A stretch of 64,000 nucleotides of DNA from Psammoneis japonica (lineage: Eukaryota), in NCBI GenBank assembly GCA_008632985.1, contig QPGO01000069.1, forward strand, positions 186,001-250,000, read 5' to 3'. Positions 1 through 42,140 of this stretch are shown here, piece by piece. Both the position numbers and the translations under genes were made by a program. Position 1 is the first letter of the stretch, and every line of letters begins with the position of its first letter. The notes below the pieces were generated by a model. It was not told the DNA's origin and searched no databases. It saw only the letters and a list, made by a program, of their open reading frames with translations.

Positions 1-1682
1 CAAGGATGATTGCCTTGGAGGAATGGGGCAACGAATCCCAAATCTGTTGGTGGTCGGGAGGGAGACGTTTCCATTGGTCACCGGTGAGGCTGGGACCGCG
101 GGTGCAGGCAGCATTGGCCTGAAGGATGTCAACATCGCTGTCGATGTCATGGAACACATCATTGGACGGTTCCTCAGAGTGGACATCGTGTGCGTGTGTG
201 GCACGTCGGGGAGCTCGAGGTGTCGTCTTGGGTTGAAATGCACTGTCGCATTGAGCCGCCGCGGAGAGGAGCAAGCCACAACGTTGATCACATGTGAGGC
301 TCTTGCCACTCTGCGTGCGATGCTGATCAGCTTGGTTCTTGACAGCACGGAGTTCCTTGACAGGATGTGCGGCATTCTCGAGCATGACGCGCTTCTGTCC
401 TTCAGAGAAGTGGTCACTGGCCGGGATGAGTGCCTCATGCTTGCGCAACTGATCTTGCCAATGAAGGATGAACCCGTGGGTCGGACCTTTCCAAGCACCA
501 TCACCAAGACGTGCGGTGGCAAGGTGCATGAGCAAGGTGGAGGACTCGATGGATGCACGGGTGGAGGCGAGCGCATGCTCGGACAAGGCGCGGTGGACGG
601 TCTGGGTGTCAGAAGACCCCACATTTTTGCAAATGAGAGCCTTGCCCTTGTCGGTGAGAAGGATGCGTTCGAAGATGGCGAACATGCACTTTTGCTGTTC
701 AGCAAAGAGCAGTTTGTCTTCGGGGCTGGTCGGTTTGTACGACGAGTCGAGAGTGCACTCGACGTCTTGGGCACGGGCTTGTGCCACAAGTGAGGTGTGC
801 CAAGTGTGCCACTGACGGGCTCCAGTCCCAGGTGGGACTCCGTGTGACATTTGGCCCGCAGAATTCTGCGTGCGAGCTCCGTAGTGCGAGAATTCTGTTG
901 ATGGATGTGTTCATCTTCAACATCAAATAAACGGCCAAGTTTGTGGTGCAATTGTGCCTCTTGCCACTCGACTTTTTTGCAAATGCACCTGCCCCACACG
1001 ATTCTTAAGACATTGTAGAATCGCGCTGTAACAAAAAATGTCAAAAGTTGTTGGACGGATCGCTCAATGAGTGCACCGTAAAATGACAAAAAATGTCGAA
1101 AAAATCATGTAGAAATCTACGTGCGCGACATACGACGTGATCCAAAAAACTGTCGATGTCACAGTTCAGCAGTGCGAGGTCCCACCCAGACCTAGAATGC
1201 GTCCACTGCTTGTCAGATTTGAGAGCCGTGAAAGTGGTGGGGTCACGCTTGATGCCTCGCTTGAAGTCTCATGCCGGGTCGTGTGCCTTGGTCGGGTTGG
1301 TGACATGCGGAGGTGCGAGGGGCAAGCTGCCGACGGACACAGAAGACATGCAGTCGGGGCTGAGGCAGCAGGCAAGGAACTCCTCATGCATGAACAACAA
1401 GGAGTCATTGGCAACATCAAGACCTTCGTGTGCTTTGACAATGTGCAGACTGGTCAGAGCTGCTAACATGTTCTTACAACCGCGGGGCAAAGGGATCACA
1501 TTGGTGCCATCATCGCACTCAAGCGAGTCGATTTGTGACGGCATGAACATGAACAGTTCTTGGCGCGAGTCCGTGCCGTCGTGGGTCAAAGCCAAACAAA
1601 GAGGGCTCCCAGCACCTTGGGCAAGCACAGTTCCAACAACGTGCTCAAAACCATCGGTTTGTTGCTGACGAGTGAGAACCAT
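1..1682 (-). mobile_element. Decayed Ty1/copia (CoDi-type diatom) retrotransposon gag, interrupted by a MITE and running off the window's left edge
   Basis: Manual minus-strand translation gives MVLTRQQQ...DFKRGIKRDPTTFTALKSDKQW|HTWHTSLVAQARAQDV...FAEQQKCMFAIFERILLTDKGKALI...ARLGDGAWKGPTHGFILHWQDQLRKHE...FSEGQKRVMLENAAHPVKELRAVKNQADQ, which I recognise as CoDi-type Gag. There is an in-frame TGA at 1269-1271. The frame is restored by removing the MITE at 814-1203 plus one TSD. Confidence 0.85.
814..1203. mobile_element. MITE copy A (non-autonomous TIR element, GACG termini, 4-bp TSD CACT)
   Basis: Left end GACGGGCTCCAGTCCCAGGTGGGAC; right end reverse-complemented GACGCATTCTAGGTCTGGGTGGGAC. 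It is flanked by CACT (810-813) and CACT (1204-1207). Both ends align to the reverse complement of 61324-61725. Confidence 0.9.
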
Positions 1683-2331
1683 GGCAGACAAAAGTGGTGT
1701 CAGGACAAGCGATTCTTGTTGGGACGCGAAGGCAGACTTGAAACTTGGGTGAGAATGGACTTAACTTGAAGTGGACTTGACTTGAAATCTTGAACTACCT
1801 TAAAATCAGAAGTCGCCAGGCTGTGCTGTCCCGATCATTGTCAAGTGCTAAACTTCCCATCCGGTCCGTAGAGTTGTGCCGGCACGTGCGAACCCACAGC
1901 CAGCGGCGCTTTGGGTTGCTTGCAAGCGGAGTAGCGGGTTGTAAACCCCTGCAGGCAAGCTGACTGGAGGTGGACAAGACCCCCGAACCGTTCTCATTTT
2001 ATGTCGGTTGGATTTCTGATCAGGCTGGCCAGTTGACGCAGGTGTTGGGCGCTGTGGATGAACAAACAAACGCGGGAAAAACACCCTTGCCCCAACGCAG
2101 GCTGCAATCACGGCTGCTTGCTCTCACAGTCGTCCTCGTGGACCCAGTGGAACTGCAGAGCACCAGCAGTCCAGGGTAGATCAGGTGCAATGGACTCGGT
2201 GTGCTTGTAGAGTGGTGGCAAAGCCGCAGTCCAAAGAGTGGGCACAAGTTCTTGGCCGTGAAGATGTGTGTGCATGTGTGTCTTCAGCGACGAAGATCCT
2301 TGAACATGTGGGGTTCCTGACCGTTAACCAA

Positions 2332-2601
2332 TGAATGGGTGTGTCAAGGGATGAGGATAAAGGATGGACTTGGATGTGACCGTTGAGTGCATGTCTTCAG
2401 CGACAAAAGGCAGTGCGATCAATCCAGACATCCAGCGACAAGGAGATTTGAACGGTGACGTTAACTTCCTGCCCGATGCCTGGTGTTGAATGCGTGCAGA
2501 CTTGCCGATGCACGCAGAACACATGCGGAGATCCACGCAGAATTGAAGTGGCATCATCGGTAAATCAACGACGATGATGGCGGTTGCTCAATGGGTTGAC
2601 A
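2332..2601 (-). repeat. Putative 5' LTR of the CoDi element, followed by a PBS-like TGGTTAACGGTCAGG
   Basis: On the minus strand the segment starts TGTCAACCC and ends ...CCCATTCA, followed after 1 nt by TGGTTAACGG, upstream of the gag ATG. The second LTR is not in the window, so the boundaries are tentative. Confidence 0.45.
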
Positions 2602-3759
2602 ATGAGCAAGACTGTTAATCTGACAGAAATTGAAGGCAAATGGCAAGAATTCAAACAACAACTCCTTGCTGCTGTCTAAACAGCAGATGAGTCTCCGCTC
2701 AGAGACCGTCACAGGAGCCGAAAGACATGCAAGTCGGCACAATCGGGCTGCTGTTGTTGTTCTTGTGAGCCTTGCTGCCGGCGAGAAAATGTGGACACTG
2801 ATGGGACTCGCGCACATCCACGTGGAAGCAACACCAGGAAAGTGTTCGCAGATGGACACTAAAACACCACAAAACACGATGATCGTTGATGATGCTGCTG
2901 TTGTGCCAGTCTTACGATAATTTCCACTCATTTTTTGCATTGACATGATCACTCGTCTTATGGAGGACTTGCTTGCATCTTGGTTTGGTTGAAACAGAGG
3001 GCAAAACGTTGTTTCGCGAGGTGAGCACATTTGCCACTCGAACTCGTGACTCGATCATGTTTCTGCGAGATGATTTGATGTCGTGGACTCGATGCCTCTC
3101 TTCAACATTCGTTCATGCGTTTGGCATTTCTAATCTATCATTGGTGCTGTCACGTTGCTTTTGCCGTGATGTTGTTTCAGCAGGTTTGATTTTCGGATTT
3201 TGGCATGCCGTTTTGGGTTGCACGTGTCATCTGGAGTTGGGGGGCGGTCAAAAACGCATTGAGCATGCATCCAACACAATTGTTTTGGCCACGGATACAA
3301 CTCACAACGATCACATGCACATTGAATGAGGAATTGACGATTTTGTTGCGTTGACAACCGTTGTCTTGGAGCCGCTCTACCGACACATGAGTTTGTCACG
3401 TCATTGCGGCGCAAAAAGTGAGACTGAGTCGGATGAGTTGATGGCATGAATGATGATTTGCTTGAATGGCCATTGAAATGGCTTCACACGTTTGTTCAGA
3501 CTCGTGGGTGAGCACTGTGAATCACTCTGTTGATGTTCAACCGGAGTGACATTTTTGCATGCCTTTTTCATGTTGCTCAATTTCTGTTCTGCCTTGGTTG
3601 CCACGCAGCAGGCACCAAACAAGCGCCTCGGCGATTCAAGAACAATGTTCAAATGCACAAGAGCCTGCGTTTTCAACATGGCAGCATGTTGGTGAACGGC
3701 CTGGCTAAATGTGCAGCGTGAATTGCTGCTGCATTCCCGCAAATGGTGAGTTTTGGGAT

Positions 3760-6700
3760 TCACACATTGAGAAGTCCAAACGACTCGAAACCTGCACTTT
3801 CTGACACATTGTTGCTCTCCGCCATTGCGAGATCATTGGCAGCTTCTGCAAGACAGCAAACCATTGAAATCTTTTTTTCAGTTAGTGACTCCGAAGCATT
3901 GGAGTTCTGAAGATGTGTCAAGATTTCTGGAGACCAGATGAAAATGCCATCGTTGCCTTCTTTGGCAAGTGCTGCAACTGCTCCTGGTTTTTCCCTGTCA
4001 AAACCAAATGCAACAACTTGCTCTAGATTCTCAAAATGCCCTTTGCGCCCTGCTGTCAACTCTTTTGGGGCTTGCTTGCCAGGGTATGACGAGTGGAACT
4101 TGTTCCCCTGGTGCGACACAGCATGCAGTGACGCACCCTTCTTGTGATCGTTGTTCCGAACTCTGAAGTTTCGCGTCACACCGGAAACTTTCCCAGCACG
4201 AACGGCACGTTTTCCTCGATTCTTGTCTCCATGAACATGCACACCCTCCTGATGTTTGTTGCTTTCGTCTACAACAGGCATGGTGTCCAGGTTGAGGAGG
4301 GCAGTGTCGTCGTCAGCACAGTCTAGATCATCGATGACGTGCTTGGATGGGATCATGATGGAAGCCATCCGGACTAAGTTGTTGTGAAACCATTGCCAGA
4401 CCACGTGGTGACAACATCCATTGTAATCGTTCAAACGATTGCGCTTGTAACGTTCAAGACGCGACGACAATAAACCGGCCAGTTGGTTGCTCCGTTGCAT
4501 CATGTTGTCATCAGCAATGACGATGTCTTCAGCTGCTGTGACATGATTTGCAACCAGCTCACGCCATTTCACATTCTTCAAAACATGTGTAGCTTCAGGT
4601 GAGTTTTCGACTGGAGCACTTGGTGCATCTTCACTTTCAAGCGGAACCTCCTGTCTTTTGCATGTCACGTCGCGGTCACGCAACAACCAAGCGACTCTTG
4701 TCAGGTTTTCTTCCCCTGTCTTCGCATCTTCGAGCTTCCCCTTGTCAGGGAACTTGAAGGAGCAGGTCTTTTTAGCCGTCTCCCATTTTCGCACATGGAC
4801 AAATGCCTGTAGCCTTGGAGCCGTCATGGCATTGAAGTCGTCAAGACTCGCATTCGCAAGCCCTTCGCCGTTTCGCCCTCGGACGCGTGACANNNNNNNN
4901 NNNNNNNNNNNNNNNNNNNNNNNNNNNNNNNNNNNNNNNNNNNNNNNNNNNNNNNNNNNNNNNNNNNNNNNNNNNNNNNNNNNNNNNNNNNNNNNNNNNN
5001 NNNNNNNNNNNNNNNNNNNNNNNNNNNNNNNNNNNNNNNNNNNNNNNNNNNNNNNNNNNNNNNNNNNNNNNNNNNNNNNNNNNNNNNNNNNNNNNNNNNN
5101 NNNNNNNNNNNNNNNNNNNNNNNNNNNNNNNNNNNNNNNNNNNNNNNNNNNNNNNNNNNNNNNNNNNNNNNNNNNNNNNNNNNNNNNNNNNNNNNNNNNN
5201 NNNNNNNNNNNNNNNNNNNNNNNNNNNNNNNNNNNNNNNNNNNNNNNNNNNNNNNNNNNNNNNNNNNNNNNNNNNNNNNNNNNNNNNNNNNNNNNNNNNN
5301 NNNNNNNNNNNNNNNNNNNNNNNNNNNNNNNNNNNNNNNNNNNNNNNNNNNNNNNNNNNNNNNNNNNNNNNNNNNNNNNNNNNCCCTTGTCACGCCCGAG
5401 AGTGACTGGGCTTTCTTCGAGACACCGCAAGATTTCCGCCTTGTTGGGGTGGACAGTTGGGTCGAATGCCTCTGCTGTCAGCAAAGGTTGCAGTGACTCA
5501 ACTGCAGGAAAAACCTTGCTGAGATCACAACCCGCTTCAGATCCAGTGCGAGAAGGGTTGCTTTTGTTCTTGGCAAGTTTCTGTTGCAAATCGAGATTCT
5601 CAATTTCAGGATTGTTCGTGTGCGCCTTCATTTGACCCGCGTCGCCGTCGAACCACAGAAGAGATCGTAGAGTTTCAGGAACGGCTTGTCCCTGTGCCCA
5701 TTCATTGCTGATTTCTCTTTGAGCCTCAAGAAATGGTTGGAAAATGTGCCTTCGGTAGATGACCATTCGTTCGGACTCTCGGTCGGTGACATTGTTGCGC
5801 ATGAACAGGACGCAGCCGCATCCCGCATTGAGGTTTGTGTCTCCACCAGCACACAGACCTCGGACCCGAATCAGATGTGTGCCATCCGCATTGTTGCATT
5901 TGTCTGATGAGCAACCTTTGGGAAGCTCTCGATCTGTGAGTTTCAAGAAGCTAACCATCATGGGTGCCATCTGCCCACACGCGGAAAAGCAGTGCGTGTC
6001 TTTTGCTTGCATGCCTCGCATTGACTTGTCTTCCCCACTCTTGTGTTTTGCGTGAGTGCCGGCATCACAGTTTGAAGACGCAGAGACCAAACGCCACTCA
6101 CTTTTGTTGTTTTTTGTTCCCGCAAACACGCACGTCGTTGTGTCATCCAATCCCACAATGTGCGTGGGTTTAACAGGGTGCACCTCAACTCCCCATGCCT
6201 TCTCAACAAGTTGAAGAAAGAGCTTTGAACCCTCTCCAAGCTTTGGGAATGTGGCGTTTCGAAAATGTCTGTCGTGTCCGACAGCAAAGTGAGTTTGTCC
6301 GATGACGAGAGCCAGTGACATGGCTCCAATCAATGATTGCTCAGCTGTGCGTCGGGCTTCGGTCTTCTGCACGACACTGTCGGTGATGGACATTTTGGGA
6401 TTCGTCGCCGCGGCAAGAGTCCTGCATCGACTGACCGTTGTTCGGTGAACTGTGTGCTCATTGTCTGCTGCAAGGCCTTGATGGTTCATGTCATCCTGCT
6501 TCTTCCCATTTAACATTTTCTTGATGTCCTCTAACCTGACTGTTTGTCCTTTGCTCTCAACCACGTTTCCAGTTGCCTCAACGAGTTTGTTCTCAGTCAT
6601 GATTGGAACGCGACCCCTTGCTCCCCACGCCTCATTGATTGGTTTCCCTTCTCGAATTTTTCGCAGCACCTTGTGTGCACTCTTGTCACTGACATGTGGC

Positions 6701-7395
6701 ACACATTTCTTCTGTGTCATGTCATTGACAATTCCCGCTCACTCTTTTGCGTTCCTTCCTTGAGTTGTGTCACAAACTTCTTGTTTGGTGCACTCAAGCT
6801 GATCTTTTGGTTCAGGGTGCGTGAATGCTGTGGCATTTGACTTCTTCTTTTGAGTTGACTCATCTGAATTTTTCGTGTCCCCTTTTCGTTTTTTCGAGAG
6901 TTTGCGATCACCAGCAGGTGGCGTCTTGATGCGCAAGGCAAGTCGCTCCAGCTCAATGAGTTCATTGGCCTTTCTGGGAGCTGCTGGTGGTGGGATTTTT
7001 TCTTTGTCTTCCACGTTGTTGGGACTTGGCAGAGACGTTGGTTCAAGATTGGCGGTGCGCAAAGCACGTGATTGGGCAACTTTCTCCGAAGCCGCGAGCC
7101 TTCGACGCGCGTGCGGAACGCCCGGCATCTTGGATTCTTTTGCAACTGTTGCATTTGATTCAACAGCAGCTTGTTGAACAATGGAGAGTGTTTCACTAAC
7201 AACTTTCAGACAGTTGCTGGCCTTTTTCAAGTCACGTGCAGTGCTGTTTCTGTCGTCGAGAATTTGCCTGGTGTCTCTCAAAATGACTTGCTGTTGACGG
7301 GTGGCTTGTACGATGTTGGCATTACGAAGCTGAGTTTCAAGTGATTTGTCTTTGGCAGACCGTCTGATGGCAGCATCACCATCTGTTTTAGTCAC
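3760..7395 (-). mobile_element. Decayed DDE (pogo/DDE_1-like) transposase gene with a possible C-terminal GIY-YIG-like domain; spans the assembly gap
   Basis: ORF 3760-6720 has motifs resembling the DDE_1 triad context (IVGLDDTT ... CFSACGQMAPMMV ... RSLLWFDGD ... PSRTGSEAGCDL). The C-terminal part has EGVHVHGDKNRGKRAVRAGK...RNFRVRNNDH. The upstream ORF 6739-7395 may be the N-terminal part. The protein is depleted of Tyr and rich in Cys/His. Confidence 0.55.
4893..5383. other. Assembly gap (run of N)
   Basis: Directly visible run of N. Confidence 1.
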
Positions 7396-7912
7396 ATTGT
7401 TTGTTGTGGCAATGAGAGCAGCTTTTGCATCGATCCGAGATCGTTCTTTTTTTTTTCACGTGGTTTTGTAAGTTGTTTTCGGCGCGTGCTCTTGGATGAC
7501 TCGCACGGAGGTCAAACGCCAAAAATGACCTTTTTCAGTGTCCAGTTGTGCTCGGTGTCCATTCCCGCACGCCGGCAGCTTGTGGCTCGAAAGCAAACTG
7601 CATCGCGCGCGAACGCGTGGAACTGAAGCACACAAAACTGTGCGCGGCAAACCAAACAGCGCGTGACATTTCGCGTGCACCCAAATCCTGTTCAAATCCT
7701 GTCAAAGGTCAGTGGCCACAGCTGGCAATGGCAGGCAAAAGGTTGTCAAATGATGTTGCACTCCACGAGTTTTGGGCCCTGTGTTTCTGGTGCAAGAAAG
7801 CCAGTGGAGCACATGAACCACCGGCACCACATGCCATCTTGGTTGTTGTGTCATTGCTTTTGTCAGAACACCCAAGGAGTTGCATGCAGGACAGTTGGCA
7901 GAGTGTGTTGGC

Positions 7913-8475
7913 GACGTGTTCCAGCCGCACGTGAACCAAATCGTGCACAAAAACGACATTTGCGCGATTTTTGCGCGGTCCCTAACTTACGATCGAACTT
8001 TCACCACCAAAAGTATAGATTTATACAAATATAAATGTTTTGCAACACTAACAAGACTCGTGTGAGTGTTGCAATATCATTGTTATTGTGCTATCTGCTA
8101 TCTATGTTTTTCATTGCGTTAAAAGATTCGTAACACAACGGATGATTTTCGGCGAAAACATTGCCGTTATTTGGATGTTACCTAGACATATCTTTGTACG
8201 ATGCTACTTGGTAGGTTTTCTACCTACAAAAAATCTCAGTATAAATCTACTGACGTACAATCAGGATTGAGTCTAGGTACTGAGGAAGTTTATGATACAA
8301 ATCCCATGAGGATTTGAACACCCCTCAAAAAACTATTTAAATGTGCATACTCTAGAAGCCTATAAAAGTCAATCCGTCTAAGTATTTTTATTAAAATGCT
8401 GTATACACTAAAATATACATAAATTATATTCAAAATCCGATTGTCGTTTTGTGCGTCACCTGGATGGAACACGTC
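7913..8475. mobile_element. MITE copy C (GACGTGTTCCA TIR, 4-bp TSD TGGC), AT-rich interior
   Basis: Left end GACGTGTTCCAGCC...GCACAAAAACGACA; right end reverse-complemented GACGTGTTCCATCC...GCACAAAACGACA. It is flanked by TGGC (7909-7912) and TGGC (8476-8479). Confidence 0.85.
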
Positions 8476-11047
8476 TGGCAGTTCTTTTGGTTTAGATCAC
8501 AGCACCTGCTGGCTGCGGGTGTGATCTCTGGTCTTGGGACAGAAGCCCAGCTGCCCACCAGAAGACAGGAGACACCAACACCCAGGGTGATGATTCTTCA
8601 GACAGGCGCCAATTTGGAGGATGTCTCTCCAGCTTGCTGCCAGCTGAAGAATCTTGTGCAGAGAATTTGTGCCAAAAAAGCCTGTCGATTAGTGTGTTTG
8701 GGGGTTTTGGCCACATTTGGTGAATGCCAGATGGAGTTGTTTTTGTTGCACACAACAACACACTGGCAATGTCCCCAAATGTGCTGACAAGCAGTCTTTT
8801 TTCAGCCAGCAGCTGGCTGGAGAACTCCCCCAGATCAGTTGGCAGGTGACTGTCTTGCTGCTCTCTTGTGATGCCTCATGAGATGGAAGTCTCATTTGGC
8901 ACTCATGCCATTTTCTGCTGGCTCTTGTTGGGCTCTTCATGTGCTCTCCCCATTGCCAGGGTGGGTCACATGATGTCCACTTGAAAAGGAAGGAACCAGG
9001 TTCAAGAACATTGGGTGTGCTGGTCTTGCTGAACCACATCCCTCGTTGCTTTTCTTTTTTTGTTGCACCAACTGCAGGGCAACTCAGGCAAGATTCATGA
9101 TGGCAAGGTTGCAAGCCCCCAATGCCAGGCATGTCCTGCTTGGAATCTAATTAAGCCAAGACTCTGGGTGTTCAAAAGGGCCCCAAAAGTTAAGCCCAGT
9201 GGCATGCCGGAATGAAGGGTGCTTGGCAAACAAAGCATGGATTTGTTGAACTTGGTGACATGACAACTCAAGTGGTGACCCATGTGCTGACTTGTTTGAA
9301 GCACTTGAAGATTAAAACTGGGCAACAGAGTCAAATTCATGGCAAACCACACCACAGCATTGACAAGTTTTGCATCTGATGGCTTGTTGCTGGGGTCAAC
9401 AACCCCAGCTGTGCAACTCAAAACAAGCTCAGATGCTGCAAGTCAGCAGCCAAAACTGCTTTGTCAAGAAAAGCCAGGACACACATGCCCAAAACTTTGC
9501 AGCACTGATGAATCTCACTCAGCTGTCTCAGAACAGTCTTGTCCTTCTGGTTCAAAAAACACAACCAGGTTTTTTCAACTGGAGTTTGTTGCCAGTGCAG
9601 TTGCCATGGATGCACTGCATCTTGGGAGTTTGGCTCCAGTTGGATGCTCCACAGTCTGGCAAATGGATGGTCCCACCATGCAAGCACCTTTGCAGACTCT
9701 CCAGATAAAAAAATGAAAGCTGCAATTCTTTGTTGACCAGATGCAGACTCCAAACCAAAAAGCCAAAAGCTGCAATGCAGCCAGCTTGAGACAGGAGACA
9801 GATGAGTCATTTGTTTCCAACAAAGATTTGTTGGACACATGCTTTGTTGCATTGCACCACATCAGTTGTGAATCTTGGGTTGGACATTCACTTGCAACTT
9901 GAATCTTGCAATTAATTGTGACTGTGTGCACCATCTTTGCAAAGCATGCTTGTCAACTCTGGCGGAAGCTGCTCCAAGGACCTCTTCTGGAGCTGTGTCA
10001 AGTGGCCCAATTTCAAAAAGCCCAGCTCCAGCAATGAGATGAGGCCGACTGACAAGATTTTCTTCCAAATTAAGATGTCCTGGTGGATGTGCATGATCAT
10101 GTCCTCCATCCTGCTGCCTGGACTTCCACAATCAACTCTGACAATGCCAAAATCATTGCAGCCAGTGTGATGATGATTTCCATTGTGTTGTCCAGTGCTT
10201 TCCACAGCAGCAGCACCAGAGGCCCTCTTTGGTCAGATCCACTTTTGTGACAGCTTGGGTGTGATGATGCACATTGCCTCAGTCAGAGGCAGGTCCAAAG
10301 TTGTTTTCATCAGTTGTCAGCATGTGAAAAAATCAAGTTTTTGCACCAGCATGATCACGCAGAAACACCTGCGCATTTTGTCTCATTTTCATCATGGAGA
10401 TTAAAAGGGTGAAGAAAAACTCATGCAGTGACTTGGATTTTTTTGGTGAGTGTTGCATGATTTTCAGCAGATGGCTGAAATGACTGCAGCCAACATCACT
10501 TGCTTGATGTGTTGGGTGCTCTTGGTCTGCTGGCCAGTGATGCTCATCTGAACAGCAGCCTTGTCATCCAGGAGGAGAATTGCAGGGGACATTGTGAGAG
10601 CACTTTTTGGTGCTCCTGAGAGGCAGGTGAAGTTGCAGGCTAACATGCAGGGCACACGCAACATGCACAGCTCCAGCACAGGTGCCCACCAACTCAGCTT
10701 CAACAGTGGACATGGCAACAGAGTGCAGGAGCAGTCAAATTGACATCAGCCCTGCTGGCTTTCATCTGTGAACACCATGAATGCAGAATGGCTAAAGTTG
10801 CAAGCCTCACAATTCACAAACCCAGGGCTCTTAGACAGGGGTGGCAAAGAACTTGATTGTAACATCTTGATGCTTTCAGAGGAGGTGGCCAAAAAGGTGG
10901 ACAAGGGTGTCAAAGTCAGGGTTGCTGCAAGCCTTGGCAAGAAGCTTGCACAGGAAAGGTGATCCACAAGTCACTGCACTGGTGCTTCACAGGTGAAGCA
11001 GAGCATCAAGCAGATGGAGGACATTGGAGGTTCAAAGTGGTGTGCTG

Positions 11048-11561
11048 GCTCTGGTGTTGCTGTTTGCTTCATCAGCGATGATGCTCCCAAGGGTGACTGC
11101 CAGGAGAGAGGTGAAGAAGAGGAGTGGAGCCATGCCCAAGATGTTCTTGGCTGCTGCCTCCTTTCACAGCAGCACCATCAACTTCAACTCCTGGCTTTTT
11201 TAAAATTCAGCATGCTTGTTGCTTTGGCGCACAGAGAGCTCAGCACCACAAATGGCACCCCTGCTCTTTGTTTGAGGAAGAGTTTGGATGAACAGCCAAG
11301 AGTGCTGCAACCATTGCCTCCATCTTTGGCTGGATGAACCTTTTCACTCATGGACTTGGAGGGTTGTTGCTTCTGACAAACTCAGTGCCAAGGTGGGGGT
11401 GCATGGCTGTTTGCTTGTCCACACCATCTTCCTTGCCTGCAAGCAAGCAATGATGCTCATCTTTGGCAACAATGCCAGTTCCCCTGGACTTGCCATCTTT
11501 GTCATGATTTTGTTTTCTCATGACTGCAGTGCCGTTCCTTGTGTTGACCCCCTGTCAACTG
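11048..11561 (+). pseudogene. Degenerate internal fragment of an NRT2 nitrate transporter gene
   Basis: Aligns by eye to 19073-19588 of the intact NRT2 (e.g. CCATTGCCTCCATCTTTGGCTGGATGAACCTTTTC and CACACCATCTTCCTTGCCTGC are identical). It has frameshifts and an internal deletion. Confidence 0.92.
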
Positions 11562-11683
11562 CCCCCACCTTCTCAAGCCTTGTCCTTGTCCTTGCACTCA
11601 CCCCACTTTGCCAAGAGCTGTGCCAACACTCCCCACCTTGTTCCAAGTCTGCCGCCTCTTCCTGCCTCAATGACAACCATGCC
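11461..11683 (+). repeat. ~220-bp direct repeat, copy 1 (NRT2 fragment fused to non-NRT2 sequence)
   Basis: Near-identical to 14777-14997. Confidence 0.9.
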
Positions 11684-14600
11684 TCCCCCCCCACACACAC
11701 ATTCCACGCCAAACCCTAACCCCATTTTTCACACATGGTTGATCTGTTCTTTTTAATCTTTGGCAGGTGTTCACAACACACCATTGAGAATGCCAATGCC
11801 CACTTTTTCTCCACTGGAGTTTTGGACCAAAGATGTGTGTGCTTCGCGTGCATTGGCACTTTCAACAGTCACATCTGAGCTGCAATGGCAATGACCATTA
11901 AAATGGCTGATCTCAATCTTTTTGGCTCACGAGAAAACTTGCCAACCACACTGATGAAGCAAAAGTGAAAGCTTGCATTGTCAAGCTTTGCAGGTTTGGC
12001 AAGACTGATCCAAAGTCTTGTCAGTGCCAAAGGTGCTCTGTGCATTCGAGAACCCCAATGACAGTGTACAACCAAACAATGATGACAAGTGCCAGTGCTT
12101 CCAATCAAATCATGCCAACAAGGAACAACAAAGCCACAGCGTCACATGCCGTGACTTTTGCTGAACCCAGCTCAACTGCAGCTGCAGCTGAAAAGCACCC
12201 ACCAAAGGCATCCAAGCAACAAAAAAATTGACAAACTCGAACCATGCCAGGAACTGATTGAGAGGCAGCAAACAGGACTTGGGGACACCTTTGAGACCTT
12301 GGCGACTCAAATGATTGTGCAACCAACCCAGGTGCAACTGAGGGAGACAAGCGTGCAAGCCTTCATTGGTGGTCAAGACCCTCCATTTGTCCCCTGCAGC
12401 TCAAGACTCAATGTTGAACTCAAGCACAGCAACAAGCTTAATGACAATGCTGAAGCAGCTGAGCTTGTGAGTGAATTCAAAGATTTGGCATCCGATTTCC
12501 AATGAAAAGGAACCAAACTCATGCACAAGATGGCAGAACAAGAGCTCGAATGTGCAAAAGCTGAAAGATTTGCTGCATTCTTCAACTCGTGCATCAACCT
12601 CTTTGAATGCCATGTGTTCTGTTGTGTCACATGCAGAAAAGGAGAAACCAGGCATTCATGCAGGCACCTGGGAGCGCTCTGCCTGTTGAAACATGCCAAG
12701 AAGTGTGTTGCTGACATGTTCCACTTGACACGCCTGTGAGTCAAGCAGGATGGTCATCACTGATGAGATCATCTTGCAAATGAACTTGGCAACAGAGGAC
12801 AATCCTGCCGACACCCAAGGCGACACGACAGAAAACCCATGTCACCTTGCGGATGGCAAGACCAAGATCTACAAACAAGTGGTCATGTGCCTTCAATGCA
12901 AAAACACTTTTGAGGAAGTCACGATGACACTGCAAAACAAAATCAATTGCAAGAACGAGCTTTCCTGAGCAAATGCCCAAGTCGCAGCCAGATGGAACGC
13001 ACGGAACAAAAAAGCCGCAGCAGAAGCAACATCAGCTGCACTGGAAGATGAGCCAGCAGCAAGCCCAGACATTCTAAAACAGCTCATGGCCAAACAAATT
13101 GAGCTCAAAGTGGCTGGCACAGCTGAACAAGCAGCCAAAATGCTTGAACAGCAACAGTTGCAAAAGAAATGAAAAAACTGAATGGGCAACCAGAAAGCCC
13201 CACCAGCAAAAAACAACGCCACAACAAAGGCAAGAAAAGGGCCACCACAGAAAAAAAACAAAAAACAGGAAACAAGCCCCAGTCCAAAGCCACCCAGAAC
13301 CAAGGAACAGCAAAAGGCAGTCACGGTGCACAGTGCACAGGCAGGCAAAAAGGCTCCAAAAACAAGATGAGACATGGGCAGCTAAACAGGCATGATGCCT
13401 CACCACCAAGGAGACAATCAAAACTGCCAACCGTCAAGCCAATAATTTTTGCCAGAGGATCTGTGGGTTCACACCAAACCCAAATAAAACCCAGTGGCAG
13501 AATGCAGTCAATGCCCTTGGTGACATTTCTGCAGTGCAATGCTTCAGCCAGCCACAAACAACCTTGCCTTCCACAACCCATGCACTGCCCTCATGCCACC
13601 TCCTGGACTCGTTGCATTGCTTGGACTCAGCCACAAGTTCTGTGTCCAACAACCAAAGCCTCCAGCACCCCACAACAGGCCTGGAATTGAGCAACTCTGT
13701 TGCTCAATTTGTCTCTGTCAGCTCATCAACAACACAAACAACCTTCCCAAAACCAACTGCATCCCCGGCTTGCATGGAATGGGCCCCACCAAAAATTAAG
13801 GACAGAAACCTGGAACTGCAGATGATGGACTTCATGAACCGCACCAACAAACTCTGCCACAAAACGCCCAAGGCACAATTTGTCGCCACACCAATGCCAA
13901 CTCCTCCACTCACCTAAAAGAGGACAACCAGTTTGTTGTCTGTGTGAGCGACAAAAAACAGGGACCAGTCATCATTAAAATGCAACCCATGTGAAATGAG
14001 CCCTTCAAGACCACTTGCTCAACTAACACAGCCACCAACGGCTGTCAATGCAGGAGAAAAACGAACTCCTGCAAGACACCAAACAACAGCTCATGGATGC
14101 GCACAATGAAGCCAAGTCAATGTCAAGCTCTGCCAAGCAAACACATTTCAAACGCAGCTTCAATCTGCCGCACTGCATCCCGCAATTTCATGTCATGATC
14201 AAGGTCCAGAAATCCCCATGGAAAACAAGACCCATCATCAGTTGTGTCAGAAGCTTTAACAAGATTTTCTCAAATTTGTCAGACAAGAAAATGAAAGAGC
14301 TCCTTGCTTTTTCCCACTCCTGCATCTGCGATTCTTGCCAAGTGCAAGGATCTGTGAGCATTGGAAAGCCCACCCAAGGACGCCAAGCTCTTCATGCTTG
14401 ATGCCGTCAGCATGCTTTAAAACATTGACACAAACCATGCATTGGAAGTCTTCAAGAACTGGTTTTCTGCCTGTTCTGACAAAATGCCAGCAGATTTCCC
14501 ATGCAGTTTTTTCTTTCAGCCCTCTCAATCATCATGACATGGAACATTCTCCAGTTTGACGACACTTTTTGACTGCAAACCTGTGGAACTGCTGTGGGCA

Positions 14601-14777
14601 CTGGCACAGCATGCATGTGTGCAACACTGCACAAGGCCCTTCATGAACGCCAAGTGCTGCAAACCCACTTCACCACCAACCTGCAGTGCTGTGGCCAATT
14701 CATCAATGACATCTTGGGGATGTGGGCCGGAAACTCTGACTCAACATGGACAGAATTCAAAGCAGAAATGAACAACT
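11562..14777 (+). mobile_element. Decayed, 3'-truncated Penelope-like retroelement (upstream ORF plus reverse transcriptase)
   Basis: RT motifs across frameshifts at ~13.9-14.77 kb: IPQFHVMIKVQKSPWKTRPIISC, KLFMLDAVSML*NIDT, NILQFDDTF*LQTCGTAVGT, LQCCGQFINDILGMW (Penelope-type PKVHK..RPIIS, DxxSMYTNI, QxxGTAMG, RFIDD). No GIY-YIG domain is seen before the sequence switches to the direct repeat. Confidence 0.8.
11938..12003 (+). ncRNA. Type I hammerhead ribozyme (mutated) in the 5' part of the Penelope-like element
   Basis: CTTGCCAACCACA-CTGATGA-A-GC-AAAA-GT-GAAA-GCTTG-CATTGT-CAAGC-TT-TGCAGGTTTGGCAAG. It has the core CUGAUGA and GAAA, stem III GCTTG/CAAGC, NUH = CUU, outer stem I CTTGCCAA/TTGGCAAG and a minimal stem II. 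Confidence 0.75.
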
Positions 14778-14997
14778 CTTTGGCAATGCCAGTTCCCCTG
14801 AACTTGCCATCTTCATCATGATTTTGTTTTCTCATGACTGCAGTGCTGTCCCTTGTGTTGACCCCCTGTCAACTGCCCCCACCTTCTCAAGCCTTGTCCT
14901 TGTCCTTGCACTCACCCCACTTTGCCAAGAGCTGTGCAAACACTCCCCACCTTGTTCCAAGTCTGCCACCTCTTCCTGCCTCAATGACAACCATGCC
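14777..14997 (+). repeat. ~220-bp direct repeat, copy 2
   Basis: Near-identical to 11461-11683. Confidence 0.9.
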
Positions 14998-17149
14998 CCA
15001 TGCCCCCCCCCTTCCGTCATTCCATGGTCCCTAGAGAGCCTCAATTCTCTGGGCTCTCTTCTTGGAATTGTCCTCAACCACTGCAAAAATTGAGGATGGA
15101 TCTGAGCAGGCTGAGCATGGACATTTTCCCACATGTGCAGCATGCCACATTGTTGCTGTGACATCAACTGTCATCACACACCAAACATGGCATCTGTTGG
15201 CCATGAGCATTGGCTTGGTGGCACTGATGATGCCAACTTGGTTGGCCTTGATGATGACTGGGGGACTGTGAAGATGCAGCACATGGTGGCATGTCTCTCT
15301 CTCTCTCTCTCTGTTCAGAAATGGGCTGCTGCTGCTGCTGTTGCATCTGCTTTAGCAAAAAGAACAAGAGGAAGCAAGATTTGGCACCAGTGCAAAACTT
15401 GCACCAGCAACATTTGGCAGCAGCAAAAAACTTGTGCTGAACAATGATGCTGGACAATGGCGCCAATTGTTGTGGCTTCCCTCTCGTCACAACTCATTCA
15501 AGCAAAATTCAGCAGCAGCACAAAACTTGCACTGAACACAAAAGCAAACTCTTGCAACTTCTCAATTGGCTGTCACAAGTCATTCAACAAAGCCTTGGTT
15601 GGCTGTTCATTGTTTTTGGAGCCAGAGCACCACAGCTGCCTTTTTCTTTGCCTTCTCCATTCTAAAAAAAGCAGAGGCAACCATGCCTTGTTGGCAGTGA
15701 ATTTGGTTTTTGGCTTGTTGTGTCCACCACAATTTTGTTGGTTGTTTCCCAAGTGCTTGTGAGTTTTTTGTTTGTGTCTTGGCTCACCTTCACAAAATGA
15801 AGACACTTTCCCTCCTTGACAAGTTGAGCTTTCTTTTTCTTGTCAGCATTTTTTCATGCAGACTGTGTTGGAGGAACCCCAAAGTGTGTCAGTGAGTTTG
15901 TCCTTTTTCTGGAGCTGACTGCATTTTGCAAAAGTTTCTGCCAGATGCATTGAGAGCTGAGAGCAGTCCACAGCAGTTGCACTGCTGTCAAGATTGCCAT
16001 GACAGAATGGGCACTTGTTTGCATGTCCATCCTTGCTTCAGTGCATGGGTGCTGCTTCCGCTTCTCCAAAAAATTCTTTTAAGTTGACAGCGCCAGCACT
16101 GCCTCTGAAAAATGAGACCATGTCCCTCATGAAGTTCATTCAAACTGCATTGCCTCCCATGCATTGACACAACTTTGTTGGAAAGCTGAGTCAGGCTGCA
16201 GAGCCAGTGCAGTTGAAAAGATTTTTACAGAGGCAGCAGCTGTGCCACTTTGCAGGATGCCTTCACCAACAATGTCCAGTCTTGGCGTGTTTGCTCAAGG
16301 CTCAATGGGAGCTTTTGAGAGCCACCATGACAAGACTTTTGTTTTTTTTGTTGTGTCACAGCCCCCACATCAGTTGATGATGTCATGCACATGGCACAGC
16401 TGACAACAGCCAATGCATGCTCAATTTGTCAGAGTTGTTGTCATTGATTCTTGACATGCCTGGTGTGTTGCATTTTTTTGTTTGTTGCACTGTCATGCAT
16501 TTTGGCACATGAGCAAGTTTTTCCCAAGGTTTGGGGAATGAAAACCTGTGAGAATTGTTGCCAGAGTCTGTTGGATGCACTGCACAAAATTTGAACAATG
16601 GCGAACAAACAATGTGGTGCACAGAACAGATGATGGTTCCAGAGCAGTGCTTCAGCACTGTGTCATTGCATCACAGTGCACTGTCAGGGCCCACAAGCTG
16701 TCAGGGAGCTTCTTGTCAAACAACAGCACATGATTGCTCTCTTTTGCATTGACCAAATCTTGTTTTGATGGTCCTTGTCAGCCACATCCTGTCTGCTGCT
16801 CTTTGCTGGCTCTGCTTGCATTTTAGCTTCAGACTCTTTTCTTTCTAAGTGGTTTTGTGCCAGCTTCAACAAAACCGCTTGGGCCTGGCTTGGCAACGTG
16901 TTGGCCAACAACATTGGCCCAATTTCTGCAAAAACTGGTGTGCTTTTGGCATGAACAGAGCATGAGCAGCACAGGGGGCAATTTGATTTTGATGTTTTTT
17001 GGCACATCCATTGGATTGCAGCCAGCACATGAGTGGCACTGCTGTCATCAGTTGCCACATTGTGGTGGAATGCCAACTCATCACTTTTCCTTTGCATGCC
17101 ATGTGTGAGTTGTCAGCAAAGAAGGCAGCTTGTCAGGAAAGGAAGGGTC

Positions 17150-17990
17150 TGCCTTGCTGTCCCCCAACCCTCAACCTTTCCCAACAACCCTGACTTGTGC
17201 TGCCTCTCTCTCAGCCTCTCTTGGCAGTGCTGGCTGCTGCGACCCCCCCCCCCCTGCCATGGCCGCTTGCTCCCTTCTCACTTCCCTTGCCGGCTCTCTC
17301 CAATTTGCTGAACAAGGGGTCTCCTTGGCTTGGCAGGTGACTGACACTTCCACCTGCCTCCCAGCTGATCTGCTGCTCTCTCCTCCAGGTCTAAACTGTG
17401 CTCCCCACCTGCCTCCAGTCTCCACCCCAATTTTTTCTTCCTTGTGCCTGCCCTTTTCCAAGTTGAATCTCCTGACTTTTCTTTTTCCCTCTGCCCTCCT
17501 TTGCCACTCCAACTGCGTGGCCTTTGCCAGTCACCCACCTTGACATGTCCACACCTTTGCCACCACCAGCACAGTGCTCTTCCCCTGCGCACCTGCAGCA
17601 CCAACCTGGCCTCCAGCTGGCCCTCCCTTCTCTCCCTCCCTCTTGCCAGTGTTCAACGGCTCTCCTCCATCATCACTGCCACCAACAGATCTAGCCTCTT
17701 CCTCCCCCCCCTTCACTCTTGACCATCACTTGGGTGTTGCAGGGCACCATCATTTCCACACCCTCCTTTTGGGTCACTCTCGAGGCGGTGCTTCATCCGC
17801 CCCACCCCCGCCTCCCACAGCCTCTCCAGCCAACTTTTTTCCAATTCTCATGCTCGTTCTTTTTCAGCCTGCTGATCTTCTCTCCTTTCACCAATCAACC
17901 TCGTTGTCCAGGTCAACATCACCTGGACAAACCGCAGCCCCCTGATCATTTTGGCTCTCCATTGCTCATCCACTCACCCATTTCACGCCC
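17150..17990. other. Pyrimidine-rich low-complexity tract at the edge of the repeat block
   Basis: Visibly C/T-dominated on the + strand; no credible protein. Confidence 0.5.
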
Positions 17991-18308
17991 ATGACACGCG
18001 TGAGCGAGCGACAAGACGATGAGGTGGCACTTGCAACGCCGGCATGCACGGACTCTCTACCTACAGCCAGTAGGGCCTACAGTGCTGTACGCTACGGTAC
18101 GATGCGAAAGCGGACGATTGACTGACGTATTTTCTCAGTGGCAAACCTCCGGAACTTCAACGGGTTCTGCCGCCACCGCGAACGAACACGTCTTTCAACT
18201 GCCAACCGTTCAACTTTTCAAATTCAGTTCTTCTTTCAGATCGTCTCACAATTTTCTAACGCCTCACTTGCCCCACTGTTCACACGTTGAGCAACAAGAC
18301 AAGCAATC

Positions 18309-19872
18309 ATGTCCGAAACAAATAATACCGAAATCGATAACGGCGAAGTAAGTCAAAGCGGTGATGTGGTGTGCCACTATTGTTGTGTCGTTATTCGCCT
18401 TGTGGCTCACGAATCACGATGTCGCATTTTCGACGCAGTGGAAGGAAATCAAAAAGTACGAGACGTACTCGCTCGCAGTTGATCCCGATCAAGATGACAA
18501 GGCTACCGAGATCAAGCTATGCAATTTCTCTCGCCCGCACATGCGTGCGTTCCACTGCTCGTGGTGGGGTTTCTTCATTGCCTTTTTCATTTGGTTCGCC
18601 ATTGCTCCTCTGCTCTCTGAGATCAAGAAAACTCTCGATTTGACCAAGCAAGAAGTGTGGACTTCTTCCATTGTAGGTGTCGGAGGAACTATCTTTATGC
18701 GCTTCATCCTTGGACCTGGTTGCGATAAGTGGGGAGCTCGCATTCTGTTTACCGCAGTCTTGTGCATTGCCTCCATCCCGACGGCCCTGACCGGAACTGT
18801 CAACTCTGCCACCGGCCTCGCCATCCTTCGTCTTTTCATTGGTATTGCTGGTGGATCCTTTGTCATGTGCCAGTACTGGTCCAGCCGTATGTTTACCAAG
18901 GAGGTAGCAGGAACTGCAAATGCCCTTGTCGGTGGGTGGGGTAACCTCGGTGGCGGTGTGACTCAGCTTGTTATGGGATCTGCTCTCTTTCCTCTCTTCA
19001 AGGTTTTCTTCGATGGCGATGCCGAAAAGGCCTGGCGTACCGTCTCCGTCGTCCCTGCCGTCGTTGCCTTCAGCTCTGGTGTTGCCATTTACTTTATCAG
19101 TGACGACGCACCCAAGGGTAACTACCACGAGATGAAGAGGAACGGAACCATGCCTGAGATTTCTGCTGCTGCCTCCTTCCGCAGTGGTGCTATCAATTTC
19201 AACACCTGGCTTCTTTTCATTCAGTACGCCTGCTGCTTCGGTGTGGAACTCACCATGAACAACGCTACCGCCCTTTACTTCAAGGAAGAGTTCGGCCAGA
19301 GTACCGAGAGTGCCGCCGCCATTGCCTCCATCTTTGGCTGGATGAACCTTTTCGCCCGTGGTCTCGGAGGATTTGCCTCTGATAAATTCAATGCCAAGAT
19401 GGGAATGCGCGGCCGTCTCCTCATCCACACCATCTTCCTTGCCTGCGAGGGAGCAATGGTGCTCATCTTTGCCAACACTGGATCCCTTGGACTTGCCATT
19501 TTCATCATGATTGTCTTCTCCATCTTTGTGCAAGCCGCCGAAGGTTCAACCTACGGTATTGTCCCCTACGTTGACCCTCCGTCCACTGGATCCATTGCTG
19601 GCATCGTCGGTGCCGGTGGTAACTGTGGTGCTGTCGGTTTCGGTATGGGCTTCCGCGAGCTCAACTACAAGGACGCCTTCCTTCTCATGGGATTCGTCAT
19701 TCTTGGATCTTGCGTCCTCTCCGTCTTTGTCAGGATCAAGGGACATGCTGGTCTTATCTTTGGACAGGACGACCCCGAAATCACCAAGGCTGCTGCCAAC
19801 ACTCTTTCGGTTCCTGAACCGGATGCGGAAGCCATGGAGGATGTCAACGTCGAAGAAGAAGAAGAAGAGTAA
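18309..19872 (+). CDS. NRT2: High-affinity nitrate transporter (NRT2/NNP family, MFS); exon 1 18309-18347, exon 2 18439-19872
   Basis: FSRPHMRAFHCSWWGFF, GGSFVMCQYWSSRMF, ANALVGGWGNLGGG, FGVELTMNN and GIVGAGGNCGAV motifs; GT-AG intron after MSETNNTEIDNGE. Confidence 0.97.
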
Positions 19873-41344: not shown

Positions 41345-41862
41345 TGATCACATGCAGAGTGAGATCTGATGATGTCTGCAGTGCTTGTTTGCTGTTGCAG
41401 GCCACTTTGATGGCATCCTCCATCATGAGTGGTGTTTGCAGATGTCCTCCACTGCACAAATAATTCTGCAGAAATTGGTCATCTCTGTCTGGCAATGCTC
41501 TGCATCTCCCAGATGACAGGGTTCCTTGTCCTCTGGGCAAGAGCAACAAGCCATGCATTGGCCATTGGCTCTTAAGAGGTGTTCAGATCTGGCCTGGTCA
41601 TCCCATGCTTCAGCCATTTTTTGGAGTTCTTGGACTGACTTCTTGCAGTTGCCATCAGGCACAAGCCACACTCCCAGTGTTTTTGCCACCACTCCAGGGC
41701 AGAGCTGTTGGATCTTTTGTTGCATGCTGTGGACATCAGCAACACACACATGGATGGTTTGTCTGGATCACCTGGGTTGAAGTTATCTTCAATGTGGGTC
41801 CATTTGCAATCATGTGCAGAGTGGGATCTGATGACATCTGCTGCAGTTCTTGTTTGCTGTTG
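41345..41862 (+). repeat. Pair of ~55-bp direct repeats (~41345-41398 and ~41808-41862)
   Basis: ATCACATGCAGAGTGAGATCTGATGATGTCTGC...CTTGTTTGCTGTTG versus ATCATGTGCAGAGTGGGATCTGATGACATCTGC...CTTGTTTGCTGTTG. Confidence 0.7.
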
Positions 41863-42140
41863 AACCTTGTTTGCACATTGGCTGCTGCTTCCCAGCTTGG
41901 TTGGCTCTGATGACCCACAGTGGCATTCATCATGTCACTGTCATTGATGAGTGCAAACCTGCAACTCAGAGTTTGTTGCCACCAAGTGCAAGAAGTTTGA
42001 AGGAAGCCCCGTGTCTTGCCACCCTCATCAACTCAAAAACTGGTGTGCTTGCTGCAGTCCATGTTTGTGGAGCATTGCTGTTGTCCAGGTCAAAATGGTG
42101 TGGATCACATGCCACAGCAAAGAGATCTCCTCTGAAAGAT

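Follow-up and report, generated by a model that had tools for sequence, protein, structure and literature searches.

Defined domains of a diatom genome have lost TpA and CpG dinucleotides, probably through TpA-specific hypermutation accompanied by slower CpG decay

In this study, we analyzed a stretch of 64,000 nucleotides of nuclear DNA from the diatom Psammoneis japonica (GenBank assembly GCA_008632985.1, contig QPGO01000069.1, positions 186,001 to 250,000), hereafter the window. The window contains an intact gene for the NRT2 nitrate/nitrite transporter and, within non-genic DNA, a decayed fragment of such a gene. From these two copies, the original prediction held that nearly every TA and CG of the fragment had been converted to TG or CA and that TA was the ancestral state. 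We found that the fragment is a detail of a far larger pattern, in which four blocks of the window are depleted of TA and, to different extents, of CG. The blocks are probably the saturated trace of a TpA-specific hypermutation that acts on silenced mobile DNA within restricted domains, with a slower decay of CpG superimposed.

Results

TA and CG are depleted in defined blocks of single-copy DNA

Block A (positions 1..7990), which runs off the start of the window, was depleted of TA only and contained 63 TA (7.9 per kb) and 50 CG per kb. Both dinucleotides were depleted in block B (8491..18000; 4.2 TA and 8.9 CG per kb), which ends approximately 350 bp before the NRT2 open reading frame (ORF), and in block C (40251..54100; 3.5 and 6.9 per kb). 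Block D (60451..62000; 4.5 and 29 per kb) was depleted of TA and half depleted of CG. The genic DNA of the window contained 31–41 TA and 54 CG per kb. Expressed as the ratio of observed to expected counts (o/e), TA was approximately 0.05–0.08 in blocks B, C, and D (0.05–0.06 in B and C, 0.08 in D) and 0.14 in block A, and CG was 0.11–0.15 in blocks B and C, 0.43 in block D, and 0.84 in block A. In non-coding DNA, TA was depleted to an o/e of 0.05 on both strands. CA and TG had o/e values of 1.64–2.05 in blocks B and C, where the other 12 dinucleotides lay between 0.76 and 1.30. The six reading frames of these two blocks contained 1196 TGA, 105 TAA, and 46 TAG stops; those of the genic DNA contained 867, 390, and 416, respectively.

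The borders of the blocks were sharp to approximately 100 bp in sliding windows. Genic DNA and spacers showed TA o/e values of 0.3–1.1, and non-coding windows within gene-rich DNA (20001, 21501, 26001, and 34501) were undepleted, with values of 0.91–1.13. Therefore, the pattern is not a genome-wide neutral bias that is restrained by selection in genes. By the cut-offs for depleted clusters used in a preprint on the chlorarachniophyte Bigelowiella natans, which is discussed below, 28 of the 64 1-kb windows qualified.

The assembled sequence was confirmed by separate k-mer assemblies of a DNA sequencing run. One Logan contig spans positions 8434–11340 without a single differing letter, and another bridges the border of block B (17243–18579). 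Read depth over the fragment region was 66–89, similar to that of the flanking single-copy DNA; in block B as a whole it was 50–163, mostly 66–95, and the flanking genes had a depth of 62–68. The matching contigs and the single-copy depth indicate that the blocks are neither collapsed repeats nor basecalling artefacts; an artefact of modified bases in particular was ruled out by the k-mer contigs together with the independent metagenome assemblies described below. The k-mer contigs contained two variant sites in block B, namely TG/CG and CA/CG.

The NRT2 fragment has lost nearly all TA and CG of the intact gene

The intact gene (18352..19872, + strand) encodes a major facilitator superfamily nitrate/nitrite transporter (Pfam MFS_1, PF07690, E = 1.1e-24) and is not depleted. 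Among the best 120 homologues listed, the closest are diatom sequences with identities of up to 81% and no identical protein is on record; the named organisms are all diatoms (Phaeodactylum, Seminavis, Nitzschia, Amphora, Cylindrotheca, and others). Read depth over this gene (18425–19675) was 123–161, approximately twice that of the flanks, and some contigs carried variant letters. The genome therefore contains at least one close NRT2 paralogue or allele elsewhere. The fragment (11048..11561, + strand) corresponds to residues 242–413 of the 506-codon ORF and contains indels and a 24-bp deletion. The gene in the window is either its donor or a paralogue of the donor.

In a local alignment of gene positions 19073–19520 with fragment positions 11048–11519 (353 of 473 columns identical, 74.6%), all nine TA sites of the gene were changed in the fragment (5 CA, 3 TG, 1 AG), as were all 19 CG sites (11 TG, 6 CA, 1 GG, 1 AA), and the bases outside TA and CG were changed at 64 of 390 positions (16%). 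In a global alignment over the full span considered in the original prediction (gene 19073–19588, fragment 11048–11561), TA was changed at 8/8 sites, always to TG or CA, and CG at 20/20 sites, 18 of them to TG or CA. Gap placement accounts for the difference of one TA and one CG between the two alignments. The near-total conversion that had been predicted was thus observed, with 26 of 28 sites now TG or CA. As predicted also, TA and CG were substituted far more often than other dinucleotides: those touching no TA or CG changed at 101 of 375 positions (27%) in the global alignment, and the excess gave a Fisher p of 1.6e-15 for TA and CG together and 3.6e-5 for TA alone. The seven pairs of intact and decayed sequence quoted in support of the prediction are all present in the two copies. 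The last two fall where the global alignment opens gaps, and here we used the alignment with the 24-bp deletion, with which tblastn agrees. The TA- and CG-free stretch CCATTGCC...CCTTTTC is, as claimed, identical in fragment and gene.

One further signature was absent from the original list. Double changes between CA and TG were found at 7 of 77 sites in the fragment, where 0.73 were expected (Poisson p 1.2e-5). Such an excess is expected if TA and CG are short-lived and are pushed on quickly to the other pyrimidine–purine step. The TG and CA outcomes were interleaved along the fragment, and no strand-coordinated runs of either were evident by eye.

The already mutated tail of the fragment and its 3' flank are present a second time at 14760..15024 (+ strand; 94.1% identity over 236). 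The differences that arose after this duplication include CG to TG, CG to CA, and changes between CA and TG; the tail was recopied after most of the mutation had happened.

Tyr and Arg codons give the direction of change

The fragment covers the Tyr codons of residues 247, 258, 292, 309, 401, and 406 and the Arg codons of residues 277, 336, 353, and 355. We aligned the best 120 NRT2 homologues out of 2327 with E ≤ 1e-30. Tyr was kept at the six positions in 96–120 of the 120 sequences, the remainder being mostly Phe or Leu, and Arg was kept at the four positions in 111–120. None of the 120 diatom homologues had Cys or His at any of the ten columns, and the fragment has Cys or His at those Tyr and Arg positions that are still readable in frame. 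Accordingly, TA and CG are ancestral and TG and CA are derived. The prediction that TA is the ancestral state therefore stands, and we found among these homologues no NRT2 paralogue with Cys or His at these positions that would speak against it.

A classical defence resembling repeat-induced point mutation (RIP), whereby duplicates are detected through their homology and an enzyme of the RID/DNMT4 type mutates both copies, deserves attention here, since the fragment duplicates a gene 7.5 kb away. Furthermore, according to the part of the source available, a DNMT4 related to fungal RID and of no known function is present in 31 of 60 diatom species (PMC9998398). However, the intact copy and the spacers are untouched. 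In 500-bp windows across 18001–20500, TA o/e was 0.34–0.91 and CG o/e 0.68–1.38, which bears out the contrast with RIP drawn in the original prediction. In addition, TpA is the dinucleotide that RIP makes, whereas here it is lost, and the blocks are single-copy by depth: only 17 self-matches were found in the whole window, and the blocks share almost nothing within it. RIP is already refuted for the TA component, and a defence of this type is extremely unlikely to account for the blocks. What exposed the fragment to mutation is its location in a depleted domain of 9.5 kb and not its being a duplicate.

A Tyr-poor transposase-like ORF in block A

Block A contains a long Tyr-poor ORF (3763..7455, − strand) of 1231 codons with one internal TGA. 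Its frame comprises 992 codons at 3760–6738 (−) and extends upstream for 238 codons beyond the single TGA. An assembly gap of 491 N (4893–5383) lies inside the ORF. A word-index homology search with this ORF found no relatives. An exhaustive HMMER search of 1.84 billion representative proteins with its first 451 residues gave 428 relatives at E ≤ 1e-3 and 152 at E ≤ 1e-10, approximately 30% identical and up to about 1300 amino acids long. Tyr makes up 0.4% of the ORF and, on average, 2.71% of the 150 listed homologues.

In an alignment of the best 80 relatives, nine columns had Tyr in at least 30% of the sequences. At these columns, the ORF has four Cys (TGT or TGC), two His (CAC), and a single Arg, Leu, and Tyr. 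It retains Trp at all four Trp columns and Arg at 8 of 14 Arg columns. The codons at these columns make the ORF a second, independent case in which the direction of change can be read. Three of the 150 listed relatives (P0126, P0190, and P0261) have less than 1% Tyr themselves, and the two of them in the 80-sequence alignment, P0126 and P0190, have Cys or His at some of the Tyr columns. It therefore seems that hypermutated copies in other genomes or metagenomes have entered the public databases as predicted proteins.

Pfam gave no hits on 12 members of this family. An AlphaFold model of the relative P0121, built on a 59-sequence alignment with a mean predicted local distance difference test score of 89.9, was closest to the Mos1 mariner transposase (4u7b_A; E = 1.7e-5, probability 1.00), followed by TnsB, Sleeping Beauty, and Metnase, and the family consensus contains D/D/E-like motifs. 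From this predicted fold, block A would be a dead DNA transposon that has lost its TA and not yet its CG.

The length of such an ORF follows from the genetic code. A change of TA to TG or CA is unable to create an in-frame stop, because TAA becomes TGA, which is still a stop, and TAG becomes TGG or CAG, by which a stop is lost. This change makes TAA, TAG, or TGA from none of the remaining codons and at no junction of two codons, and thus no new stops arise. The dead transposase has accordingly kept its frame for more than 1200 codons, and both its stops are TGA.

With the direction of change read in this way, explanations that invoke no mutation can be weighed. A deficit of TA and CG might arise if UpA and CpG were selected against in RNA or if certain sites were avoided, from the composition that foreign DNA brings with it, or as an artefact of modified bases in sequencing or assembly, and CpG and UpA are indeed jointly suppressed in RNA viruses and cytoplasmic RNAs, according to the available part of PMC3829696. 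Yet a dead gene fragment and a transposase ORF carry derived Cys and His at ancestral Tyr positions, the depletion to an o/e of 0.05 extends over both strands of non-coding DNA, separate k-mer contigs of the DNA run match exactly, and unrelated metagenome assemblies contain the same kind of block. Such readings are already contradicted by the polarised sequence comparisons, and we give them almost no chance.

TA loss depends strongly on the flanking bases

We calculated the survival of each site by its flanks as its density in depleted DNA relative to that in genic DNA. With R for purine and Y for pyrimidine, the survival of RTAY was 0.003 (1 site versus 364), that of YTAY 0.055, that of RTAR 0.054, and that of YTAR 0.40 (chi-square p 1.7e-33). 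ATAT was found 0 times in depleted versus 79 times in genic DNA and ATAC/GTAT 0 versus 179 times, and TTAA was not depleted at all (29 versus 36, ratio 1.06). The survival of CG ranged by flank from 0.07 (ACGA/TCGT) to 0.28 (GCGC), the loss being greatest with A/T flanks. A weak dependence favoured by A/T flanks is the expectation for spontaneous deamination of methylcytosine. The flanks of CA and TG in the blocks were even (0.22–0.28 per class); therefore, the skew in the flanks of TA is not a by-product of how new TA arise.

The palindromic order of the flanks, from RTAY through the half-sites to YTAR, suggests that a duplex tetranucleotide is recognised and not one strand. A single-strand rule, in which the A of TAY would be the mutated base, was tried on the fragment by eye and rejected, as six informative sites fitted and four did not. 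That the favourable flank does not predict TG or CA likewise points to duplex recognition. From the flank order and this unpredictability in the sequence, we suggest that the agent may recognise a duplex tetranucleotide.

This specificity bears on an explanation without a dedicated enzyme, in which TA is slowly removed through regionally biased replication or repair of heterochromatin, or through GC-biased gene conversion, and CG is removed through methylation. Such a bias would fit the limitation of both losses to the same gene-poor domains, and the background changes in the fragment are also rich in transitions (41/62 in the global alignment). Against this, the change of A/T to G/C is limited to TA, since the o/e of AA, AT, and TT remains at 0.76–1.30, and the fall of RTAY to 1 of 364 with TTAA untouched resembles sequence recognition. 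Furthermore, a regional bias or gene conversion is at odds with the G + C content of the blocks, which was 0.43–0.57 in 500-bp windows (8501–18000 and 40501–54000), like that of the rest of the window. We regard this explanation as very unlikely.

TA loss and CG loss are two separable processes

Across the depleted blocks, CG o/e spans 0.84 to 0.11 while TA o/e is at most 0.14. TA loss and CG loss are thus two separable processes, and this shows that TA loss precedes CpG loss. A single ADAT2-like deaminase of dual specificity, acting on A and C in DNA, would write both kinds of change with no need for cytosine methylation. Enzymes of the ADAT2 family that edit A and C in DNA, from amphioxus and Trypanosoma, are cited in the part of the B. 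natans preprint available (bioRxiv 10.64898/2026.01.13.699255), and the domains from which TA and CG are erased here coincide, borders included. One such enzyme is nevertheless improbable given that the losses are separable, because TA is lost completely where CG is nearly intact, as in block A (TA o/e 0.14, CG o/e 0.84) and in the metagenomic locus L048 (6600–8972), and because the dependence on flanks is approximately 300-fold for TA and only approximately 4-fold for CG. The word CpG, moreover, does not occur in the available text of that preprint.

For the TA component, the chemistry may also lie on the thymine. A dioxygenase of the TET/JBP type would then make 5-hydroxymethyluracil (5hmU), or a further oxidised thymine, at TpA of silenced mobile DNA, and mispairing with G or mis-repair would give T to C. 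This route presumes that 5hmU is mutagenic towards T to C, and we know of no report of 5hmU in diatoms. The interleaved TG and CA outcomes in the fragment are predicted by thymine oxidation and adenine deamination alike. In dinoflagellates, as described in the available part of PMC11572971, a TET/JBP homologue makes 5hmU, which is enriched at repeats and silences transposons, and the same source refers to older work in which thymine was replaced preferentially in TA and TC. TC, however, was not lost in our material: 13 of 35 TC in the fragment were changed, 10 of them to TT and not to CC, and TC o/e in the blocks was 0.90–0.97, slightly below that of genic DNA. Thymine chemistry is accordingly a less likely route, with perhaps a minor share of the probability, than the deamination of adenine.

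TA-free blocks in other diatoms

TA-depleted blocks occur in other diatoms too. We examined 60 metagenomic loci from JGI and ENA that carry NRT2 relatives (277,911 bases). In 4 of 469 1-kb windows, located in L045 and L048, TA o/e was below 0.2, and a resolution of 500 bp added L047 and L060 as loci with TA-free blocks beside NRT2. L047 and L048 represent the same place (99.8% identity over 7,096 bp), and L045 shares nothing with L060 or L048; there are therefore three independent places with the same kind of block. The stretch 6600–8972 of L048 is of the TA-only type, with 2 TA in 2.4 kb and CG o/e of 0.5–0.9, and both dinucleotides are lost from L045 (1–1000) and L060 (1–500). Of 12 TA that survive in these blocks, 10 are likewise YTAR. 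A Pfam scan of 35 ORFs of the metagenomic depleted parts gave nothing above the cut-off, and in blastn and tblastx comparisons of the window blocks with the 60 loci, the NRT2 fragment alone was matched.

In another locus, L043, we observed a TA o/e of 2.16 in the 500-bp window 2001–2500, followed by 1.5 kb with CG o/e of 0.11–0.21 and normal TA. This CG-only depleted stretch shows the opposite order to block A.

Other contents of the blocks

We scanned 250 stop-to-stop ORFs of at least 70 amino acids from the blocks with Pfam, two of which are the halves of the block A ORF on either side of the N gap. Only a zf-CCHC zinc knuckle in block C (47409..47822, + strand, E = 5.3e-6) exceeded the curated cut-off, in addition to a few weak matches below it; this ORF is probably a gag relic. 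In terms of a recognisable origin, block A thus has the ORF with a DDE-transposase fold, block C has the zinc knuckle, and Pfam recognised nothing above its cut-off in blocks B and D. Scans of the window for tRNAs and Rfam families found nothing.

A short element of approximately 400 bp with inverted ends is present in block A (814..1203, − strand), and a second copy is present in block D (61324..61725, + strand). The copies lie in opposite orientations and share conserved inverted ends around a divergent middle. TA of the block A copy aligns to CA (four sites) or TG (two sites) in the block D copy.

An undepleted, TA-rich island (7991..8490) separates block A from block B, with 49 TA (98 per kb) and a G + C content of 0.34. 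Contig depth there was very high, approximately 8150 (bin 8000–8416) versus approximately 66 in the neighbours, and loose contig ends were observed at 8191, 8388, and 8459. The island represents a repeat of very high copy number or else DNA of organelle origin, and it was recently inserted or mis-joined. Block C also contains a degenerate tandem array (42149–42688) with a 9-bp unit, TCAACTTTG, in approximately 56 copies with 68% matches.

Discussion

Proposed mechanism

These results are probably best explained by a domain-targeted, TpA-specific hypermutation of A:T to G:C together with a slower decay of methylated CpG, and not by RIP. We propose that defined chromosomal domains, consisting of dead mobile DNA and of sequence embedded in it such as the NRT2 fragment, undergo context-specific transition hypermutation. 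In a first and fast component, the A:T pair of TpA would be converted to G:C, giving TG or CA, most strongly at RTAY, more weakly at YTAY and RTAR, and almost not at all at TTAA. The agent would most likely be a base-modifying enzyme that acts on DNA in silenced chromatin, with deamination of adenine to inosine as the first guess at its chemistry and oxidation of thymine as the second. In a second and slower component, deamination of 5-methylcytosine would turn CG into TG or CA in the same silenced domains. Neighbouring genes and non-coding spacers are exempt, with the borders sharp to approximately 100 bp, and genes that are hit would persist for a time as long, Tyr-free ghost ORFs.

Several points weigh against this interpretation. 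The process is read from end states alone, and no mutation was caught happening. The sequence itself shows the direction of change, its specificity for dinucleotide and flanks, its confinement to domains, the separability of TA and CG loss, and the presence of such blocks in other diatoms. We infer the methylation and the chromatin targeting of the blocks, as we do the enzyme; the methylation of transposable elements (TEs) is known from other diatoms only. Blocks B–D are nearly without recognisable content, with one zinc knuckle among the scanned ORFs, and therefore an origin as mobile or foreign DNA is shown for block A only. The favourable flank fails to predict whether TG or CA results in the fragment. 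The DNA run that confirmed the sequence may be the assembly's own sample. Finally, the depletion in B. natans is far milder (Rho of TpA 0.45 in the viral region, versus an o/e of 0.05 here), and the available text of the preprint (bioRxiv 10.64898/2026.01.13.699255) makes no mention of the CpG loss that is found here, so that the sameness of the two mechanisms is a deduction.

More tentatively, diatoms and chlorarachniophytes might share an old DNA-editing defence that, in cooperation with CpG methylation, recognises RTAY as a duplex palindrome in foreign DNA that is silenced and changes the A:T pairs of this palindrome, and that has made a large share of the genome in some diatoms, approximately half of this window, free of TA and CG. 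We regard this as possible, with the odds against it. If it were true, gene predictors would call Tyr-free ghost ORFs as genes.

Significance

Leaving RIP aside, the 2026 Bigelowiella preprint is, as far as the searched literature goes, the first in which targeted genomic hypermutation that defends against mobile or viral DNA was measured in an alga. The window provides the saturated end state, probably of the same TpA-specific process, in a diatom, that is, in a far more studied and ecologically dominant group, and the host gene NRT2 gives a clean proof of polarity. The flank rule, under which RTAY disappears and TTAA persists, gives a concrete specificity by which a candidate enzyme can be sought. 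In practice, blocks free of TA and CG and long ORFs free of Tyr will mislead gene prediction, TE annotation, k-mer statistics, and the dating of divergence in such genomes. The signature also allows silenced domains to be mapped simply, with no more than the sequence.

Comparison with known systems

RIP in Neurospora and other fungi resembles the present case in that mobile or duplicated DNA is destroyed by hypermutation through transitions, and blocks beside intact genes are left with a dinucleotide signature. However, RIP changes C to T at CpA, gains TpA, and lowers the G + C content, whereas here TpA is lost and the G + C content is unchanged. RIP also hits both copies of a repeat, whereas the targets here are single-copy and the intact NRT2 gene is spared, including its synonymous sites and flanks. 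With TpA lost and with single-copy targets near a spared intact gene, RIP proper is excluded.

ADAR and APOBEC enzymes of animals are comparable in that deaminases drive the hypermutation of selfish elements. They differ in that they act on RNA or cDNA and give strand-specific changes in retroelements, whereas the sites hit in the present DNA transposon and gene fragment are interleaved and lie on both strands. Editing of RNA intermediates by an ADAR-type enzyme was rejected on this ground, as TG and CA are interleaved in the fragment and both Cys and His occur in the ORF of a DNA transposase. ADAR prefers a 5' U according to the Discussion of the B. natans preprint (bioRxiv 10.64898/2026.01.13.699255), which was available in part.

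The decay of methylated CpG in vertebrates, plants, and diatom TEs gives the same CG to TG or CA change that was found at 18 of 20 sites in the fragment, with the same weak dependence on flanks that is greater with A/T. It accounts for the CG half alone and leaves TA unexplained. In Phaeodactylum, TEs are CpG-methylated and the methylation is maintained by DNMT5a, as described in the part of PMC9998398 available.

Dinoflagellates belong to the same supergroup as diatoms. Their 5hmU system is similar in that an enzymatic base modification is aimed at repeats with a reported preference for T in TA, and it makes thymine oxidation, by analogy, a serious alternative to adenine deamination for the present blocks. 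In the available part of that report (Li et al. 2024, PMC11572971), 5hmU is an epigenetic mark not reported to be mutagenic, and its preference extends to TC, which is not lost here.

The closest parallel is the TpA hypermutation of integrated DNA of nucleocytoplasmic large DNA viruses and virophages in B. natans, reported by Mettrop et al. in April 2026 (bioRxiv 10.64898/2026.01.13.699255), of which parts were available. In mutation-accumulation lines of this alga, 231 of 302 nuclear mutations fell in two integrated viral regions, and 230 of these 231 were A to G or T to C, all of them on TpA. The rate was approximately 6e-7 per site per generation, approximately 1000 times the background, with bursts in some lines. 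The genome has 124 clusters of windows poor in TpA and rich in CpA and TpG, the targets exist in single copy, and the coding sequences poor in TpA are enriched in TE-type domains. An ADAT2-like deaminase was proposed there as the agent, as a candidate only.

The two cases agree in the A to G and T to C transitions on TpA that give TpG or CpA, which were found here at 8/8 TA in the fragment and at 6/9 Tyr columns of the block A ORF. They agree also in the confinement to defined domains, which are foreign, silent, and single-copy there and have single-copy depth here, with a mobile or foreign origin indicated for block A and a probable gag relic in block C, and in the long-term trace of clustered TpA loss with a gain of CpA and TpG; apart from CG, only TA is depleted in our blocks. 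They differ in the organism, a chlorarachniophyte there and a diatom here, and in the targets, which are viruses there and here comprise a putative DDE transposon, a probable gag relic, and a fragment of a host gene. Mutation rates come from accumulation lines there, whereas the present evidence is the end-state sequence. Neither diatoms nor the flank rule, with RTAY erased and TTAA spared, are mentioned in the preprint, as far as its available main text goes. Our literature search on diatoms brought up neither a joint depletion of TA and CG nor TpA hypermutation. TpA hypermutation, described earlier this year in B. natans, would thus be new for diatoms, and new details are the dependence on flanks, the sequence in which TA and CG were lost, and the ghost ORFs.

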